64,000 nt of DNA from a virus (taxonomy: Duplodnaviria > Caudoviricetes). Each line of letters starts with the position of its first letter. Positions within the stretch are counted from its first letter, which is position 1. The notes under the pieces were generated by a model. It saw nothing but the letters and a program-made list of their open reading frames with translations, was not told where the DNA came from and did no database searches. The stretch covers positions 32,001 to 96,000 of the IMG/VR virus record IMGVR_UViG_2974613666_000001. One strand, written 5' to 3'. Positions 5,059 through 46,425 of the stretch are shown here, piece by piece. Both the position numbers and the translations under genes were made by a program.

Positions 5059-7479
5059 TTACCAGTCAGGCTTTCTACGGCTAACCACAATAGACCAATC
5101 TAGACCGCTACCTAGTGTTTGGGCTATTATCTGAAAAATGGTTAGATCAACTTGCGGAGGTTCTGGATCTGGAGGAATTTGTATTTTATCAAAAGTTACT
5201 ATTGGGTAATCACGCCTACCTAATGTAAGGCTAGTGACTGATGTAATTTTAGGCATACCGTTAATAGAACCAAGTATTGTGTCTGTAGTAGACGCTGATA
5301 GAATTGTGCGTCTACGATACTGGCCGTTACACCAATAAGTGAAAGGATCTCCCTCTTTGAGGTCTGGTCTACCTTCTATTTGAAGAGCCTCAGTAAAACC
5401 ATTCCGCCAATTCTCAACAGCTAGTTTACACCTCGCGCCAGTTATAGCTTGATCAAATGTAGTAGCTGCTGTGAAGGATTCTCTACCTCCAACTGGATTA
5501 CTAGCACTATAACCTTTAGATTGAATGAGATATCTATACTCTTGAGGTGCTGGATCTGTATCAGGTGGGGGTAGGTTGTCTGGGTCGTTTAACTTGAATA
5601 GGGGGGGTCTGCGAGGAGCTAAGGGTAACTCACCTGTACCTTCTTCTACAAATGTCTCTTCAACAGCAGAGGCGATCTCCTGACCCTGCGCGTTAAACTT
5701 TTTAATGTAGGTTGAGAATTTCTGGGGGGACACTTCTTCCTTGTTAGTAACTACAGAGACATTAAGGATAGGGTCTATGCCATAAGTATATTTATACGTA
5801 GGAGGTATTACTTCTGTAAAAGACTCAAACCTCGACTCCTCCCCTACTATTAATCTAGGTAGAAGCTTGTCGGTTGATCCGGGATCTATACCTGTATTTT
5901 CTGGATTCTCTCTGCTTTTATATGATACCGTCTCACTGCGCTCAAATTTTACATAGTAGGGAGGTGCATAATTAAGATTTTTTACAAACACAGGGGAACT
6001 TGTACCATCAGGATTGCACTCCTTACCTTGGACAAGAAAATCGCTGATACTGAATTTGTATTCAGGTATTATTTCTAAATATTTGCTTGATCTTCCCACT
6101 ATAGGAAGATCAAAAAACTGATATAGCTCAAACTCAGGATCTGTTGCACCTAATTGCAAAGTCTGAGGTGCTTCAGTGGATTCCTGTTTGTATCTAACCT
6201 TCTGGAAACCATAAGCGTAAGTAGACAGTAAATAACCTGTTTTAATATCATAATTATATGTTGTTGTTACCTGCCTAATTAGCTGCCAGTAGTTAGAAGG
6301 TATACCATCAAGCCCACCTGTACTAGCGCTATATAAATCATCGGCTATAAAGGCAAAACCATAGGTTTCGTCCACCTGTTTTGTTATAGTACCACCAGAT
6401 TCAGTAATTATAGAACGTGATTTGGTAGTACCTCCTATGTCAAAGCACAGACTCATAGTTTTTATTGTGTCTACACCTTCCAAAACATTGGGAGCATCCT
6501 CATCACCTTCTATGCGCTCTTTAGTTGTTAAATCAATAGCAGTGAAGGTGGGTATATAATTACCCTGCGTTGGGTCAACTATATCAGTATCTAGTGGGTC
6601 TGAAAACTCCCCTGTTAGCTCAACATTAGGATATTCAAACCCTAATGCAATATCCTCTGCTGCTTGTATAGTAGGTACTGGATAAGGTGTAGTTGTTAAA
6701 GGGAAAGTAGTCTGATTATTAAACGTTGGTGAGATATATGGCGGTGAGCTTATTACTGTCTTGGCAGTTCTATCTATAGCCTCGTAGCTAGTTTCTACAG
6801 CCCCGTAAATCTCCGATTCAGGATAATAAGCACCCCCGTAGACATTAATAGATGAAACCTCCACACCATTGGGATTACTCCACCGAATGAATGCGTTAGC
6901 AATCCTTACTCTTTCCTCTAGTAACTGTATTGGATCTACGACAGCATCAAGAGGAGTATTTTCTGGTATGTTTACGGGGTTTAAAGTAACTGAACCTAGG
7001 TAGGGTATGCCTATCTTAGATAGTAAGTTTTGAACTGTTGTAGTTTTGTTTGGATCTGGATCATCAGGATCGTCAGGTACTACGCAATCAGGATCAAGGA
7101 AAGGCACGTCAGTAGGAGGATTGTTAGTACCGTCTCCTCTCAGAAAAGCAACGCTTCCCGCATTATTCTCCCATCTACCACCAAGAGATACGCTGATTCT
7201 GCATCGGCTGTCAGGATGTATAGAACGGGGCATCTCCTGAATCTGAATGTTATTAATCCTAAAAGGTATTCCGTATATATTAAATTCTTTACCCGGTTTA
7301 AATATAGACTGTAATATGTTCTTAGATAACGTGGATTCAAGCTCTAACTGACCACTTGGATGCTGCTCAAACTGGCGGTTAATCTGCACAGTGCCAGTTA
7401 AAGGTAAATTGTAGAAGAATGATGGTAAAGATGTAAGCAGCTTAGGTGCAAAGGGTAATGGGTTAGGAGCCATAGACAA
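5059..7479 (-). CDS. Large putative phage structural (tail/baseplate-like) protein
   Basis: 806-aa Pro/Thr-rich ORF in a minus-strand operon next to tail genes. Function is inferred from context only. Confidence 0.55.
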   Translation of the reverse strand: MSMAPNPLPFAPKLLTSLPSFFYNLPLTGTVQINRQFEQHPSGQLELESTLSKNILQSIFKPGKEFNIYGIPFRINNIQIQEMPRSIHPDSRCRISVSLGGRWENNAGSVAFLRGDGTNNPPTDVPFLDPDCVVPDDPDDPDPNKTTTVQNLLSKIGIPYLGSVTLNPVNIPENTPLDAVVDPIQLLEERVRIANAFIRWSNPNGVEVSSINVYGGAYYPESEIYGAVETSYEAIDRTAKTVISSPPYISPTFNNQTTFPLTTTPYPVPTIQAAEDIALGFEYPNVELTGEFSDPLDTDIVDPTQGNYIPTFTAIDLTTKERIEGDEDAPNVLEGVDTIKTMSLCFDIGGTTKSRSIITESGGTITKQVDETYGFAFIADDLYSASTGGLDGIPSNYWQLIRQVTTTYNYDIKTGYLLSTYAYGFQKVRYKQESTEAPQTLQLGATDPEFELYQFFDLPIVGRSSKYLEIIPEYKFSISDFLVQGKECNPDGTSSPVFVKNLNYAPPYYVKFERSETVSYKSRENPENTGIDPGSTDKLLPRLIVGEESRFESFTEVIPPTYKYTYGIDPILNVSVVTNKEEVSPQKFSTYIKKFNAQGQEIASAVEETFVEEGTGELPLAPRRPPLFKLNDPDNLPPPDTDPAPQEYRYLIQSKGYSASNPVGGRESFTAATTFDQAITGARCKLAVENWRNGFTEALQIEGRPDLKEGDPFTYWCNGQYRRRTILSASTTDTILGSINGMPKITSVTSLTLGRRDYPIVTFDKIQIPPDPEPPQVDLTIFQIIAQTLGSGLDWSIVVSRRKPDW

Positions 7480-7813
7480 CTATAGAAGGTATGACCTCGT
7501 TTAAATAAATTTGAACAGTATTTGTATAGGGATTGTGAAAGAACTCGCCAGCAGTAGGAGATACAGGGTTAACTGCTGGTGTTAGGCTTTTACCATTAGC
7601 TACCACAAGTAAGACCAGCCGCCAATCATTAGGTAAGGGCATAGCCCCTGACGGGTTACTAATTACCACTGTTTTGGTACTAGCGTAGTCAATATTGGCT
7701 AGGTGGGGATAATAAACCCCGTTGGTATTCTGGTCAAAAGAAACCTCGATGAACGGAGTGTACGAACCTAATAGGCTGTCAGGGAAATCAGGGGAGTCTA
7801 TTATTATTGCCAT
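7463..7813 (-). CDS. Hypothetical protein
   Basis: 116-aa ORF overlapping the next gene in the operon. Confidence 0.6.
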   Translation of the reverse strand: MAIIIDSPDFPDSLLGSYTPFIEVSFDQNTNGVYYPHLANIDYASTKTVVISNPSGAMPLPNDWRLVLLVVANGKSLTPAVNPVSPTAGEFFHNPYTNTVQIYLNEVIPSIVVYGS

Positions 7814-7977
7814 TATTTATATTGCTTGTAAGACTTACCCTGTATCTGAGTTCTTGTTAGTTCAAACGGTAGCGTGAACTTAACACCCCTGTAAGTTATC
7901 TGAACATCAGAATCAGTTTTTTTAATTCTGGGTAGTAGTTTGTAGAATAAATTGGCATTTTCTTCTGTTGTGTACAT
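7813..7977 (-). CDS. Small hypothetical protein (54 aa, MYTTEENANLFYKLL...)
   Basis: Read by hand. Its stop overlaps the ATG at 7813 (TAATG coupling). Confidence 0.5.
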   Translation of the reverse strand: MYTTEENANLFYKLLPRIKKTDSDVQITYRGVKFTLPFELTRTQIQGKSYKQYK

Positions 7978-7999
7978 AGCTTTTCTTTAATACAAGTCC

Positions 8000-8329
8000 T
8001 TAAACAGGTGTAGGATTTGAATCATCACTTTCTGGTTCTTCGTAATCTAAAGGGCAATCACCAGGAGTAACGTATTCAGCAGGGGATAATCCTAGCAGGG
8101 TCATAGCTTCTGACAATAAGCCGATCAAATACAAGCGACGTGCAGGACGGCTCACCACTAAATCAGTCCAGTAATTACCATCAGAATCAGGCACTCTAGA
8201 AATAGTTACATGAAGGTCGTCAGAAGGTAGACCGCCAAAGTCTCCGGTAGTGGACGCTAATAAGTCTTCATCTGTTTGAATAGTCTCACTGAAGTCATTA
8301 CCTTGATCTGGTTTAGGTTGGTCAGCCAT
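8000..8329 (-). CDS. Acidic hypothetical protein
   Basis: 109-aa ORF, first gene of the minus-strand operon. Confidence 0.6.
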   Translation of the reverse strand: MADQPKPDQGNDFSETIQTDEDLLASTTGDFGGLPSDDLHVTISRVPDSDGNYWTDLVVSRPARRLYLIGLLSEAMTLLGLSPAEYVTPGDCPLDYEEPESDDSNPTPV

Positions 8330-8894
8330 ATCACTTATTTTGATTACTAGCTCAATTATATAAACCCAACCACATATATATGTATGACCATTTAGAAGCG
8401 ATTTGGTTCTTAAGTATGACTTGATATCCCATCAACGCCCTGACTGTGATTTAGCAAGATTACTTTTAAGTTTGTTCGATCAGCTTCTGCTATCTCAGAG
8501 CCTGAACCGTATTATTAGCAATAGCTGAGGGTGTTCCAACATTCGAGGTAAGAATAGACTGATATGAATGTTAGAACACCCTTTTAACCCTTACTATATA
8601 TACGTTCTAGCCTTACGATCTTTTTAACTAGATCCAATAATTTTTACAATGAGTGCTATTCTATCTCACTAATTAATATAATTTTTGCTATCTATTATCA
8701 AGCTACTTAATTGATTATTGTTAGGGGCGATCGCTTTAGAGACGTTAGGGTACGCTGTTTACTCCTTATTGGGGCAAAAAAGTGGTGGGTGGTGACGGGA
8801 AACAGTAAATTACTAAAAATTTGCAGCACAAATGTCTGGACTACAAGAGCTAAAAATAAGCTTAAGGGTCGTAGCCCTTGGGTATATTGATTTG

Positions 8895-9753
8895 AAAAGC
8901 TTACCTGACCCTCTCAGCCAACGTCAGGCGATCGTCTGAGGGGAAGCTTTTGTTTTTGTCATCGAGTTTTTCTGATTTCTCAGAGTTGCGTCAATACAGG
9001 TAGTCTGCGGGAATTGTCCCGGTTTTTAAAATTTTGAGAATAGCTTTATACTTATCCGAAGTCTTCAGTAGTTCTTTTTTCACGCATCCCGGTCACAGGA
9101 GTTGGTACTCTGAAAGTTTCACCCTTTTATCCTAGTGGGTAACTTACTCTTACTCCTACCATCAGCAAGGTTCTTGAGTCGCCTGGTGAAATTCTTAGCT
9201 GGTGTCTTCTTAGCTCACTTATTGCGTCGTATTCCGCCTTCCGCTTACTTGACTTTATATACGAGAGTTCAAGTCCTCCACAGTTCGCTACACTGCTTTG
9301 TTTTGACCATTAACCAGAACTTCGTTTTATTACGGAGTTACGTTTCCGCATCAGCTTACAACCTTTTTCCTTTGGGCTAGTTTTACCGGGAACACCGCTA
9401 CCCCTCAGCTACTAAGAACTGCTATATAGTAACTTGACGCTACCCTAGCATATACTGCTTACCCTTCCAAGTTACACAGTCTTAGCACTTACTCATTCCC
9501 TCAAGGCTCCTATACTACCCATTCCTTGCAGAACTTCATACGTATCAGAGAGGTACTTGCCTGAGCATCTTTCTGGTTGCTCCGAGGTTATGCTCGGATT
9601 AGAATCTTGTTGACCTCTTTTATGAGGCTTTGCCTTACTCCCTACTCCCTGCCCTTCTAAAATAAATTAGATAGGTTGTGTTGTCGTGGTGGTTAGCATT
9701 CGCAAGATTAGCATCTGGTCACACTCGGCTTTACGCCGCAGGTATCAGATGCC
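8895..9753 (-). ncRNA. Large (~860 nt) structured non-coding RNA candidate, family unassigned (RNA-A)
   Basis: No credible ORF. Purine-rich minus strand with many hairpins (5' GGCAUCUG..CAGAUGCU, UGCG-GAAA-CGUA, CUGA-GAAA-UCAG) and a promoter directly upstream. Shares a 3' pseudoknot and sequence blocks with 41830-42197. Confidence 0.7.
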
Positions 9754-9756
9754 TAA

Positions 9757-9786
9757 ATAATAGCACAGGATTTTGATATGAGTCAA
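9757..9786 (-). promoter_or_regulatory. Sigma70-type promoter of RNA-A
   Basis: TTGACT-N18-TATTAT with an extended TG on the minus strand. Confidence 0.65.
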
Positions 9787-9818
9787 ATGTTTTTTGTAAA
9801 TATTGCTTTGTCAGTTTT

Positions 9819-9925
9819 GTTTCGATCCTTATTAGGGATCGTGCCTTTGTTATAACTCCTATTTAGAAAATCAGGTAATACTGTTTCTGTTTCAATCCTT
9901 TATAGGGTTATAGCATTTTTATAGT
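9819..9925 (-). CRISPR. Degenerate two-repeat, one-spacer CRISPR-like mini-array with no cas genes in the window
   Basis: Minus strand: ACTATAAAAATGCTATAACCCTATAAAGGATTGAAAC (37 nt), a 32-nt spacer, then GTTATAACAAAGGCACGATCCCTAATAAGGATCGAAAC (38 nt). The 3' halves resemble cyanobacterial repeats ending AATCCCTATTAGGGATTGAAAC. Confidence 0.6.
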
Positions 9926-9990
9926 TTATTAAGTTTATAGTGGTCTAAAGCCCTACCATTTAAGATATACCATTTATTTTACAATTAATG

Positions 9991-10019
9991 TTGCTATTTT
10001 GTAAAATATCTAGTATACT
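9991..10019 (+). promoter_or_regulatory. Promoter upstream of tnpB
   Basis: TTGCTA-N17-TATACT. Confidence 0.55.
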
Positions 10020-10048
10020 TGAAGCAACAACATTAGCATCAGGTCGAA

Positions 10049-11236
10049 ATGCTTAATCTTACTTACACCTACAAATTACAACCAACAGCGAAACAGATAG
10101 AAACCATAGAGCATAATCTCAACGTGTGTAAGTCTGTTTGGAACTATGCTCTATACGTCAGAAAGCTCTGGTACAATAGCCGTAGTTGTAAGATTAACCA
10201 ATGCTCTCTATTTCAGGAATATGTTGTTGAACCTTTTGAGTATCCTAACTACCATACTAAGTCTTCTGAATTAACACTTGCTAAAAAGACTAATCCTTTT
10301 CTTAAATCTGGTAATGCCCAAGCCATGCAGCAGACATTACGTAAGTTGGATAGAGCATTCAATGATATGAAGTCTAGAGGAATGGGGTTTCCTAGATACA
10401 AGAAAAAGATGAAGTCTTTTAATTTGTTAGGAGGTATATCAGTTCAAGGAAATATACTCAAGATGCCTCTACTTAAAGAGGTTAAGTTTAGAAAGTCAAG
10501 AGAAATTCCAGAAGGGTTCAAGGCTAAGCAAGTACAAATCATTAAAAAGGCAAGCGGTTACTACGCTAATTTAATGATAGAGCTTGATGTTAATGTTGCT
10601 AGTCCTACACCTCATGGTCATGCCTTGGGGATTGATGTAGGTATTCAAAACATGATAGCAACTTCCGACGGGTTGACGCTAAAAAGACCTAAGTTCCTAG
10701 ATAAAGCACTGCGTAAGATTAAATTACTACAAAGGAAGCTTAAAAAGAAAACTATTGGGTCTAATAACTGGAGAAGTCTGCAACATCGGATTGCTTTGTT
10801 ACATGAGGCTGTAGCAAATAGGCGTAAAGATTACCATTTTAAATTAGCTCACCAGTTGTGCGGAAATTCGGGAATGATATTTGTTGAAGATATTAACTTT
10901 GTAGCTTGGAGCAAAGGTTCATTTTCAAAACAGTCTCTAGATATGTGTCTAGGTCAATTCTTCAACATCCTTGAGTATGTCTGCTCTCAGACTGACACCT
11001 ACTTCAGTAAAGTAGATAAAAACTACACTTCTCAGATTTGCCCTAATTGTGGAACTCACACAGGTAAAAAAGACCTAAGTGTGAGGGTGCATAAATGTTC
11101 TGAATGTGGGTATGAGCGAGATAGAGACATAGCTGCTGCTGAAGTAATAAGAAATAGGGGTTTAGATAATATTGCGGTAGGAACTGCCGTGATTAAACAG
11201 TCCAGTAATGGCGTTCTAGCGGGGACTTCGGTCTAG
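10049..11236 (+). CDS. tnpB: TnpB RNA-guided endonuclease (IS200/IS605, IS1341-type)
   Basis: N-terminal YKLQPT motif, RuvC GIDVG / FVEDIN / DRDIAAA, and zinc finger CPNC..CSEC. A right-end hairpin and TTCAA lie at 11276-11280. Confidence 0.95.
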   Translation: MLNLTYTYKLQPTAKQIETIEHNLNVCKSVWNYALYVRKLWYNSRSCKINQCSLFQEYVVEPFEYPNYHTKSSELTLAKKTNPFLKSGNAQAMQQTLRKLDRAFNDMKSRGMGFPRYKKKMKSFNLLGGISVQGNILKMPLLKEVKFRKSREIPEGFKAKQVQIIKKASGYYANLMIELDVNVASPTPHGHALGIDVGIQNMIATSDGLTLKRPKFLDKALRKIKLLQRKLKKKTIGSNNWRSLQHRIALLHEAVANRRKDYHFKLAHQLCGNSGMIFVEDINFVAWSKGSFSKQSLDMCLGQFFNILEYVCSQTDTYFSKVDKNYTSQICPNCGTHTGKKDLSVRVHKCSECGYERDRDIAAAEVIRNRGLDNIAVGTAVIKQSSNGVLAGTSV

Positions 11237-11415: not shown

Positions 11416-11895
11416 GTGGCAAAATTGCATGAACATATTGCTAATACTAGAAAGGACTTTCATTGGAAAATAGCACATCAACTTTGTGATACTGCTCAAA
11501 CTATCTTTGTAGAAGATTTGAATTTAGTGGGATTGTCCAGGGGAATACTTGGCAAGCATTGTCTAGATGCTGGATGGGGACAATTCTTTGAAATTCTGGA
11601 GCAGTGTTGTTTTAAGCGTGGTGTATTTTTCCAGAAAGTAGATAGCCGAAAGACTTCTCAGATTTGCCCTAATTGTAGAATAGAAACGGGTAAAAAAGAG
11701 TTGTCACAGCGTGTTCATGTTTGTGAACATTGTGGCTATACAACTGATAGAGATGTTGCAGCCGCTCAAGTAGTTCTGATTAGAGGACTTGCAGCCGTCG
11801 GGCAGACGGTAAATATGCTTGCTGAGGGTAAATTCGTTGGAATCCCTGTGACGCAAGAATCCCCCCGGCTAGAAGCCGGGGGGAGTGTCAAGTGA
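11416..11895 (+). pseudogene. tnpB: C-terminal fragment of a second TnpB with an intact right end
   Basis: Has FVEDLN, CPNC..CEHC and DRDVAAA but lacks the N-terminus and RuvC-I. Right end is CCCCCCGGCTAGAAGCCGGGGGGAGTGTCAA, ending at 11891. Confidence 0.85.
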
Positions 11896-41186: not shown

Positions 41187-41829
41187 TAGTATATCACCTG
41201 TAAACGAAAATGTTTCAACTATCCCACTTTATTATTGCTGACAAGTTGAGTATTGTCCAGATGTTGATTATAGGACTACTAGCTTAGAAACTACTAGCAC
41301 TTAGCATAAAATAAAGTATTTGACACCGATGTATATAATACTGCTTGTAGCTCAAATATATTGCTGTATAAGGGGTTCAGATTATTTTATGTGTGTTTGC
41401 TTGTACCTTGGATTTTTCTATGATTACCATAGAGATGTTACAAATTGTATTTTAGAGGCTGGAACGCTTATACAGTACATACTACAATGTTTACACTCCA
41501 TTTTTGCCGCCGAGGGTGTGTCAGATTCTGAAGTAATTAAATTCAGATTATTCCGATTTTGACACACCCTATTTATTTACATCTTTATAGCGATCACCAT
41601 AATCTAATTTAGTCAAAAGTTATACTATTTTAAATTATCTAATTAAGTTAAAGTATTGATATATAAGGATTATTGTCTAAGTATTACTATGAAGTTATAA
41701 CTCAAGCGGAAAAAATACTGATACTTAGTTAGATCGATTTAGGTCGTTTTAGTAGAAAGTATAGTTATGACAAATGGCTGAACATTATTGAACTAAAAAA
41801 ATAATGCTCTCGATGCTATTTAGTTTTGT

Positions 41830-42197
41830 AAAACTCCAGGACACTGCCAGATGCTTTATCAGTGCCGCTAAGAGGCATCTGGGGAGTTTGTTTTGCTATC
41901 ATCTTGCGAGTCAAGCGTTTTTCTAAAGACCGATGCTTTCACCATTGCTGGCAGCTTTCCGATTTTAATTAACTTTAGGGTTTATTAGGTAGATGGTGAC
42001 AGATGACCTTTTTTCTCGGTTCTTTTCATCCCTTTACACTGGTTTGGGTCTATTCGCACCAGCCCCGTCGGCCTTAACGACGTACCACTTTGCTTTTTGA
42101 GAGCTTCAACCCATTACTGGAGGCACTAGCGAACTAGTTGTGGATTTGCCTGGGTGTAGCTCGTCTCTTTCACCGATGAAGGCTACTTACGCACCCA
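41830..42197 (-). ncRNA. ~370-nt structured ncRNA candidate, paralogue of RNA-A (RNA-B)
   Basis: ORF-free. Contains ACUAG-UUCG-CUAGU and CCA-GUAA-UGG tetraloop hairpins and a 5' GGGUG..CACCC stem. Has the same 3' pseudoknot and conserved blocks as 8895-9090. Confidence 0.7.
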
Positions 42198-42202
42198 AAT
42201 AT

Positions 42203-42231
42203 ATAATAAGGTATTTCTCACCGTTTAGCAA
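42203..42231 (-). promoter_or_regulatory. Sigma70-type promoter of RNA-B
   Basis: TTGCTA-N17-TATTAT on the minus strand. Confidence 0.65.
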
Positions 42232-42318
42232 GTATTTCCGTAAAATAATCTGCTGCTGAGTTGGTAGTGTTTGTTTCTATCCATTTCTATCCCTAGGTTA
42301 GATAAAGATTCACCACCA

Positions 42319-42359
42319 AAAACAAACCCACTACGGTTAAGGTAGTGGGTTTGTTTGTT
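42319..42359. terminator. Intrinsic terminator
   Basis: AAACAAACCCACTAC/GTAGTGGGTTTGTTT. Confidence 0.7.
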
Positions 42360-42377
42360 TCATCATATTCAGATTAG

Positions 42378-42632
42378 CTAACTCACCGGATACCATCCAT
42401 CACCTTTCCAATAGCCAATGTCACCCTTTCTTGTAACTTCCCAATCTTCATCACTCCAATCCTTGGAATGTTCGTCGCACTTTTCGCAAAAGTAAAGGCT
42501 GTAAATCTCATTATCCTAGCTCACAGCGTTAAAACATCGCATCTTTGAGCCTGCTGGGAACGATCGCTGGCAACCATAGCATTGGTGTGTTTTGCATGTC
42601 TTAGCCTGTTTGTCTTCTAGAACTCTGGTCAT
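42378..42632 (-). pseudogene. Zn-ribbon protein interrupted by an in-frame TAG
   Basis: MTRVLEDK..HQCYGC..NAVS*DNEIYSLYFCEKC..; the stop is at 42516-42518. Confidence 0.65.
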
Positions 42633-46353: not shown

Positions 46354-46425
46354 TGTCGGGTATGGGAGTTGAACCCACTTTTTTCAGGATATGAGCCTGA
46401 CGTGAAACCGTCTCACTCACCCGGC
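46354..46425 (-). tRNA. tRNA with CAT anticodon (elongator Met or Ile2); CCA not encoded
   Basis: Cloverleaf: GCCGGGT/ACCCGAC acceptor, GTGA/TCAC D-arm, TCAGG-CTCATAT-CCTGA anticodon arm, GTGGG-TTCAACT-CCCAT T-arm. Confidence 0.9.

Follow-up and report, generated by a model that had tools for sequence, protein, structure and literature searches.

A probable new family of large structured RNA genes in phages of filamentous cyanobacteria

Does the stretch of about 0.9 kb that lies without a credible open reading frame beside the replication genes of a cyanobacterial phage encode a structured RNA, and if so, what might such an RNA do? The window analyzed here (64,000 nucleotides, bases 32001-96000 of a 145.4-kb IMG/VR virus record) is near-identical to the Nodularia phage vB_NspS-kac65v162 (MK605244; genus Ravarandavirus; Baltic Sea), and its source is a Ravarandavirus-type phage of the bloom-forming cyanobacterium Nodularia. 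The stretch, designated RNA-A, is located between a block of minus-strand genes (5059-8329) and the plus-strand genes that open the replication module, including DHH phosphoesterase, DNA polymerase A and clamp loader, and all relatives share this placement. The DNA of the window and that of kac65v162 are 98-100% identical left of 8895; right of the RNA-A promoter, the two are unrelated. An earlier, sequence-only reading of the locus proposed that a giant, structured non-coding RNA is transcribed here from a promoter of its own, and this proposal stood up in the analysis described below, based on the lack of coding signs, a discrete 872-nt contig from an RNA library and compensatory base changes.

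The RNA strand carries no open reading frame longer than 30 codons, and all three kinds of stop codon occur in all six frames (8880-9800). The 217 differences between the window and kac65v162 alleles are spread 80/65/72 across the codon positions without codon periodicity, and the 30-codon frame, the only one that both alleles share, shows no third-position excess, as counted by eye from the alignment. Neither of the marks examined for a protein-coding gene, a conserved open frame and a substitution bias by codon position, was detected in RNA-A, in agreement with the initial view that no credible frame exists over these 0.9 kb.

The features of RNA-A, together with those of a second RNA described below, are summarized in Table 1. 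The promoter that had been picked out from the sequence, TTGACT-N18-(TG)TATTAT, was recovered by the promoter scan, and both its -35 and -10 boxes are kept in the kac65v162 allele. The 3' end had to be revised: the RNA was first thought to end at the pseudoknot, but it extends about 45 nt more, to a hairpin terminator with a U-run, and this hairpin (helix 17 of the six-sequence alignment) is retained in all homologues via G-C/G-U changes. The minus strand is purine-rich as claimed (58-59%), but this is ordinary for the transcribed strands of the genome, of which the coding strands reach 63%.

Table 1. Positions in the window of the features predicted for RNA-A and RNA-B
Feature	Position	Strand	Remarks
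RNA-A promoter, TTGACT, 18-nt spacer, TG-extended TATTAT	9757..9786	minus	promoter scan; sigma-70-type
RNA-A, non-coding RNA of ~0.9 kb	8853..9750	minus	predicted ends: 5' at ~9750, 3' after U-run at ~8853
5'-terminal hairpin, from first transcribed base (predicted)	9713..9750	minus	stem pairs in every lineage
Conserved core, closed multi-helix domain	9192..9361	minus	R1/R2 models built on core
3' knotted module	8895..8951	minus	P1 8951-8944/8902-8895; S1 8943-8936/8917-8910; S2 (crossing) 8928-8923/8909-8904
Hairpin terminator and U-run	8853..8879 (stem 8879..8864)	minus	terminator scan
RNA-B, candidate non-coding stretch of ~0.4 kb	41800..42197	minus	promoter-preceded; knotted module 41831-41889 at 3' end

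All or part of the RNA-A stretch was found in 20 public runs, two of which are marine metatranscriptomes. In the RNA run X10, a contig of 872 nt spans exactly 8875-9746 with 0 differences, beginning 4 nt downstream of the start that the -10 box predicts and ending within the terminator hairpin, even though a contig is no proof of RNA ends, strand or level, and carry-over of DNA into the RNA library is possible. The depth of this contig, 42, is the highest on the 6-kb stretch in X10, and the loose ends of another X10 contig of 697 nt read the kac65v162 sequence, indicating the second allele. Stretches without contig cover were not counted as evidence. The cover is patchy and uneven, which argues for RNA over DNA carry-over, and since the contig also fits the promoter and the terminator, a discrete RNA-A transcript, as foreseen in the sequence-only reading, is the simplest reading.

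The kac65v162 allele is 76% identical to RNA-A by blastn, and kac65v162 was the only record matched when RNA-A, RNA-B and the RNA of one lake phage (L117) were compared with 50,697 phage records, among which no cultured phage besides the Nodularia phages was hit. The route to further relatives was the neighbouring DHH phosphoesterase, homologues of which (42-53% identical) are encoded, in an unchanged gene order, by long phage-like contigs. R1, a covariance model of the best-conserved 170 nt, matched within ORF-free gaps, at the syntenic place and on the same strand, in the contigs L103 (25 bits), L098 (22), L117 (29.5) and L121 (27.4), while a degenerate pattern of the 3' module led to the IMG/VR contigs L123 and L124, with a score of 133 bits under a six-sequence model (R2). 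Besides the kac65v162 allele, the homologues that the earlier reading had called for thus amount to five (L098, L103, L117, L121 and L123/L124), all from lake-metagenome and IMG/VR phage contigs, about 50% identical to RNA-A and in the syntenic place.

Each of the gaps in L098, L103, L117 and L121 carries a promoter of the form TTGAC(A/T)-17/18-TAnnnT, a 5'-terminal hairpin, the knotted module and a terminator hairpin. The common layout of promoter, 5' hairpin, core and knotted module was found in the window, kac65v162, L098, L103, L117, L121 and L123/L124, always at the border of the minus-strand operon and the replication module; the terminator hairpin of L123/L124 was read by eye. The family as found consists of seven sequences in four lineages, with an identity of 44-52% between lineages and predicted lengths of about 0.65-1.0 kb. 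Scans of IMG/VR with exact patterns (three allele-conserved blocks and a downstream 17-mer) gave chance matches only, as did the scan of one metagenome (four chance matches), and IMG/VR scans anchored on DNA polymerase A and on an 806-aa protein encoded downstream of RNA-A gave no homologue. Neither R1 nor R2 had a match in two samples of 151 Nostocaceae genomes, and no significant core match was detected in the examined sequence of four other relatives found through the DHH protein (L100, L113, L115 and L119).

Across the entire window, cmscan against Rfam 15 at gathering scores detected only a tRNA (46354-46425), and a search of 8500-10100 at E<=10 with lax filters detected no GOLLD, no ROOL and nothing else relevant. 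The suggestion of an undescribed class is in agreement with this absence of any matching Rfam 15 family. Altogether, RNA-A is very probably a genuine structured-RNA gene belonging to a new family, the members of which are RNAs of 0.65-1.0 kb encoded by siphovirus-like phages that infect filamentous (Nostocales-type) cyanobacteria.

In terms of energy, folding of the whole molecule does not surpass that of shuffled sequence (z of -0.5 for RNA-A, -0.7 for the opposite strand and +0.1 for RNA-B), and the support for the structure of RNA-A comes from covariation and not from stability. For the two Nodularia-phage alleles, RNAalifold gave 29 compensatory pairs against 13.3±3.3 in column shuffles, with a structure conservation index of 0.66 against 0.50±0.03. 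A weaker but consistent signal was obtained when the fold of a single allele was tested on the other, 43-52% of the pairs being kept against 35±4%. The alignment of six sequences (window, kac65v162, L098, L103, L117 and L121) has 88.6% of its cells paired, and 50 of 99 pairs are changed on both sides, compared with 29.7±3.2 in shuffles, none of 500 shuffles reaching 50; these counts are partly inherited, three of the six sequences being close kin, and the alignment also served to derive the consensus structure. When the partners were moved by 1-3 columns as a control, only 8-15 two-sided changes remained. The covariation on which the earlier reading proposed to judge the RNA is hence present among the six homologues. 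With L123/L124 included, compensatory changes preserve the fold in the seven sequences of the four lineages.

The best-supported helices include the long-range pairing 154-159/635-640, the hairpins H2 and H6, the long hairpin H7, and H11. The closing stem of the 5' hairpin is formed in every lineage with different bases, i.e., AUCUG/CAGAU, GUCUG/CAGAC, AUCAG/CUGAU, UUGGU/ACCAA and CAAGG/CCUUG. Among the hairpins named from the window alone, four were confirmed and recur in the kac65v162 allele, namely the 5' hairpin and CCGAG/CUCGG, both with compensatory changes, CGGGA/UCCCG, and CUGA-GAAA-UCAG. UGCG-GAAA-CGUA is not kept, and the conserved helix at its site is GCGG/CCGY. The core exposes the single-stranded motifs AUAAAA, UCAAAAC and AGGACU. 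The lineages also differ in length: one stretch of the window allele, about 50-80 nt long, is missing from kac65v162, and 100-150 additional nt are present in the lake lineage. A long-range pairing of the S1 strand with 9397-9408 was considered and rejected, because it is broken in kac65v162.

The strands of the 3' module follow one another in the order P1-S1-loop(7)-S2-loop(5)-S1'-S2'-(1 nt)-P1'. All three helices covary across the six homologues, as expected if the pseudoknot drawn in the earlier reading is real, and the crossing S2 is paired in 36 of 36 cells, with three covarying positions and exchanges of CG/GC, GC/AU and CG/UA. Between the two Nodularia-phage alleles, 4 of the 44 paired positions of the module differ, making up two compensatory pairs, against 5 of the 13 loop positions. 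When both strands of the 145-kb genome were scanned with a descriptor of the module, it was found only at 8895-8951 and 41831-41889; six shuffled genomes gave none. Since no nucleotide separates S1' from S2', the simultaneous formation of S1 and S2 is sterically tight, and the module may either adopt a compact knot or alternate between two states. No match to the Rfam models of twister, pistol, HDV-like, wcaG, glnA/Downstream-peptide, preQ1, SAM-II and others was detected at E<=10 within 8500-10100 or 41600-42400.

The second occurrence of the module belongs to RNA-B, which is preceded by a promoter, TTGCTA-17-TATTAT (42231..42203), and has neither an ORF nor an Rfam match. The sequence-only reading took this stretch for a shorter paralogue of RNA-A. 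The likeness holds for the 3' knotted module and short flanking motifs, including AGAAAAAC, GAUGA and AAAACAA on the 5' side of P1 and a U-rich tail on its 3' side, but not for the body: the alignment score of RNA-A against RNA-B, 112, is near that of shuffles (102±8), indicating that the two bodies are unrelated in sequence. The two modules could not be aligned by MAFFT, and the R2 core model found no second copy of the RNA-A core in the genome. RNA-B is 100% identical in kac65v162 and therefore gives no covariation information.

Several further observations were made on the DNA surrounding RNA-A. Upstream, the window carries an intact TnpB (10049-11236; OrfB_IS605 and Cas12f1-like TNB domains) and a C-terminal TnpB fragment (11416-11895), in place of which kac65v162 has an RNA ligase gene (gp053); close relatives of the window TnpB, with identity of up to 83%, are carried by many cyanobacteria. 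A direct repeat with 16 of 18 positions identical (9703-9720 and 10028-10045), missing from the kac65v162 allele, renders nt ~31-48 of RNA-A complementary to the segment of the TnpB mRNA that immediately precedes the start codon, and this complementarity may be due to chance (about 0.03 expected) or may represent an antisense contact.

Downstream, the segment 8330-8850 is gene-poor throughout and 97-100% identical to kac65v162, and it may hold a further RNA or leader. An 18-mer, GTYCAGACAYTTRTGCTG (8824-8841, minus strand), is located 60-90 nt past the knotted module in every family member; its conservation, despite about 50% identity elsewhere in the family, makes it a candidate for a site of protein binding or an element of a promoter. 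A 17-bp inverted repeat (8528-8544 / 8566-8582), with TATATAG before it, is conserved in L098, L117 and L103, and an 87-nt copy of window 8528-8614 with 12 differences is present on a separate 24-kb contig of the DNA run X14. The 806-aa protein (5059-7479, minus strand) belongs to PHROG 15468 and has no Pfam domain. Its homologues, 45-50% identical, occur in 12 of 389 Nostocaceae genomes, including the chromosomes of Scytonema hofmannii PCC 7110 and Nostoc piscinale CENA21, and these chromosomal copies point to prophage-like relatives. The 8 kb upstream of 10 such Nostocaceae loci (1.8 kb for one at a contig end) contained no core, knot or 18-mer.

How, then, might RNA-A work? A stable RNA that acts in trans is suggested by the structured ends and conserved multi-domain fold of the molecule, along with the host-type promoter and the discrete contig. 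The best explanation is a stand-alone phage gene for a stable folded non-coding RNA, and to this explanation as a whole we assign a probability of roughly 0.6. The structured 5' and 3' ends would protect RNA-A from end-dependent decay and allow it to accumulate, and it would then act in trans as a folded particle rather than as a message or leader. A scaffold or assembly role is ranked first, though at low confidence, because the conserved frame, the lineage-specific inserts and the better-conserved 3' part resemble GOLLD and ROOL (PMC12286853).

ROOL is the rumen-originating, ornate, large RNA (Weinberg et al. 2017, PMC5737381) that forms an octameric cage (PMC12286853). Both GOLLD and ROOL form RNA-only cages (PMC12286853), homo-oligomers held together by kissing loops and A-minor contacts. 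GOLLD and RNA-A are alike in being carried by phages or prophages, in length (about 0.8 kb or more), in the lack of coding capacity, in a multi-domain pseudoknotted fold, and in the combination of a better conserved 3' part with a variable 5' part and variable inserts (PMC12286853). GOLLD is expressed during infection (PMC12286853), and the RNA-A contig comes from a marine metatranscriptome. ROOL and RNA-A are both large ornate phage RNAs with several pseudoknots and no known protein partner; the linker of ROOL is poorly conserved between homologues (PMC12286853).

In contrast, the Rfam models of both GOLLD and ROOL had no match here, the hosts of RNA-A differ from those of GOLLD (its carriers being cyanophages of Nostocales), and its helices and the family length of 0.65-1.0 kb differ from those of ROOL. 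Many GOLLD and ROOL genes adjoin tRNA genes, whereas the tRNA nearest to RNA-A is 36 kb away. The comparison drawn in the sequence-only reading is thus justified in kind, since RNA-A is large, ornate and phage-borne, but RNA-A is not of the same family. By this analogy, RNA-A would be a scaffold of the GOLLD/ROOL kind, docking its own copies, proteins or other RNAs during infection through a conserved frame with variable inserts, a role that we propose only tentatively. Dimerisation via the palindromes in P1 (AAGCUU) and loop 1 (CGAUCG) is unsupported, as these palindromes are not conserved, and no conserved self-complementary loops were seen in the RNA-A family.

CRISPR-like elements recur at these loci. 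Directly upstream of the RNA-A promoter, the window carries a pair of CRISPR-like repeats, each about 37 nt long, separated by a single spacer of about 33 nt (9818-9926). These repeats, which end GGATCGAAAC and GGATTGAAAC (minus strand) and are missing from kac65v162, belong to the same repeat family as the L121 array beside a gene for a 568-aa Cas12/TnpB-like protein; a match to Rfam CRISPR-DR10 was below threshold. The repeats of the array in L117 and L124, directly upstream of the giant RNA gene, end ATTGAAAC. Type I-C cas genes (Cas3, Cas5d, Csd1 and Cas7) are present in related lake phages (L113 567-5872, L117 3928-9224 and L115 1-2420).

The RNA could accordingly be thought of as a counter-defence platform that displays or accompanies decoys, in the form of CRISPR-repeat mimics, against the CRISPR systems of the host or of competing phages. 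This may be the most interesting rival to the scaffold reading, but it is doubtful. Four of eight loci (window 9818-9926, L117, L124 and L121) have a co-oriented CRISPR array or mini-array immediately upstream; the RNA of L123/L124 includes an insert of about 30 nt (L123 235-268, L124 2785-2820) that is identical at 20 of 23 positions to the L121 type V repeat; and alleles just 76% alike co-circulate in the same samples in phages that are otherwise 98-100% identical. Against this, L098, L103 and kac65v162 have no adjacent array, array adjacency may mark only a hot spot of accessory DNA at the module border, and neither the window RNA nor the kac65v162 allele has a repeat-like stretch: their best local scores against five CRISPR repeat types, 9-11, are at background, compared with 16-17 for the L123 RNA against the L121 type V repeats. 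The conserved core likewise bears no likeness to repeats.

The RNA anti-CRISPRs, or solitary repeat units, of phages that Camara-Wilpert et al. reportedly described in 2023 are short repeat mimics. The family resembles them in that the L123/L124 member embeds one CRISPR-repeat-like unit and several members adjoin phage CRISPR arrays. It differs in that the window RNA has no repeat-like part and the conserved 0.6-kb frame of RNA-A has no counterpart there.

RNA-A could also be a long structured leader or cis element of the downstream minus-strand operon (8329 to 5059), acting for example in processive antitermination or stability. It shares its strand with these genes, and between them lies the gene-poor 8330-8850 with the family-conserved 18-mer and the hairpin at 8528-8582. 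However, a conserved hairpin terminator with a U-run follows RNA-A, the RNA contig stops at 8875 with no X10 contig across 8249-8874 (a weak point, since a hole in the cover proves little), and the boxA-like GAACCUUG of the window allele is not kept in kac65v162. We regard such a leader as unlikely.

A primer for replication or an origin-activating transcript (cf. ColE1 RNA II), or a DNA-level element such as an origin, would agree with the divergent border beside the replication genes, kept at this location in all relatives, and with the purine-rich transcript. It is, however, very unlikely, given that transcription runs away from the replication genes and stops at a terminator, that the cumulative GC skew has no turning point here, that the purine bias is ordinary for the genome, and that the covariation of the crossing helix argues for a folded free RNA. 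A decayed protein gene or the mRNA of a very small protein (a 30-codon GTG frame, 9083..8991) is hardly tenable, for although all members share a start codon and the 4-5 opening codons (MKKEL / MKEAV) at one site and a 24-mer of RNA-A resembles lysine-rich coding repeats, the frame varies between 30, 30, 12, 8, 32 and 23 codons with close relatives differing most, the allele differences favour no third position either in the frame or over the whole RNA, the conserved bases belong to helix 11-12, and the flanks of the 24-mer matches are unrelated. This 24-mer (9206-9229, minus strand) is identical to coding repeats of the PAKKTPAKK type on unrelated viral contigs, and was taken as a chance match because of those unrelated flanks.

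The preferred reading of RNA-A is a stable, trans-acting RNA, with a scaffold role as a tentative best guess. Few large ornate RNA families are known, among them GOLLD, ROOL, OLE and raiA. The 3' module represents a new small RNA architecture, in which a closing helix surrounds two crossing helices whose 3' strands have no linker, and the phage carries this architecture again on another, unrelated RNA. The repeated adjacency of the RNA gene to phage-borne CRISPR arrays is a possible functional lead. The system is workable: phages vB_NspS-kac65v151/161/162 and their host Nodularia spumigena are both in culture, and two natural RNA-A alleles exist in near-isogenic phages; together with the environmental RNA contigs, this makes knock-outs, allele swaps and structure work feasible. 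More speculatively, and with one relative (L123/L124) carrying a mimic of the repeat of a rival CRISPR system, the family might constitute a phage 'RNA chassis', a stable and possibly self-assembling frame for exchangeable RNA cargo. If this is true, the two alleles that co-circulate among Nodularia phages would represent variants in an arms race at the RNA level, between phage and phage or between phage and host.
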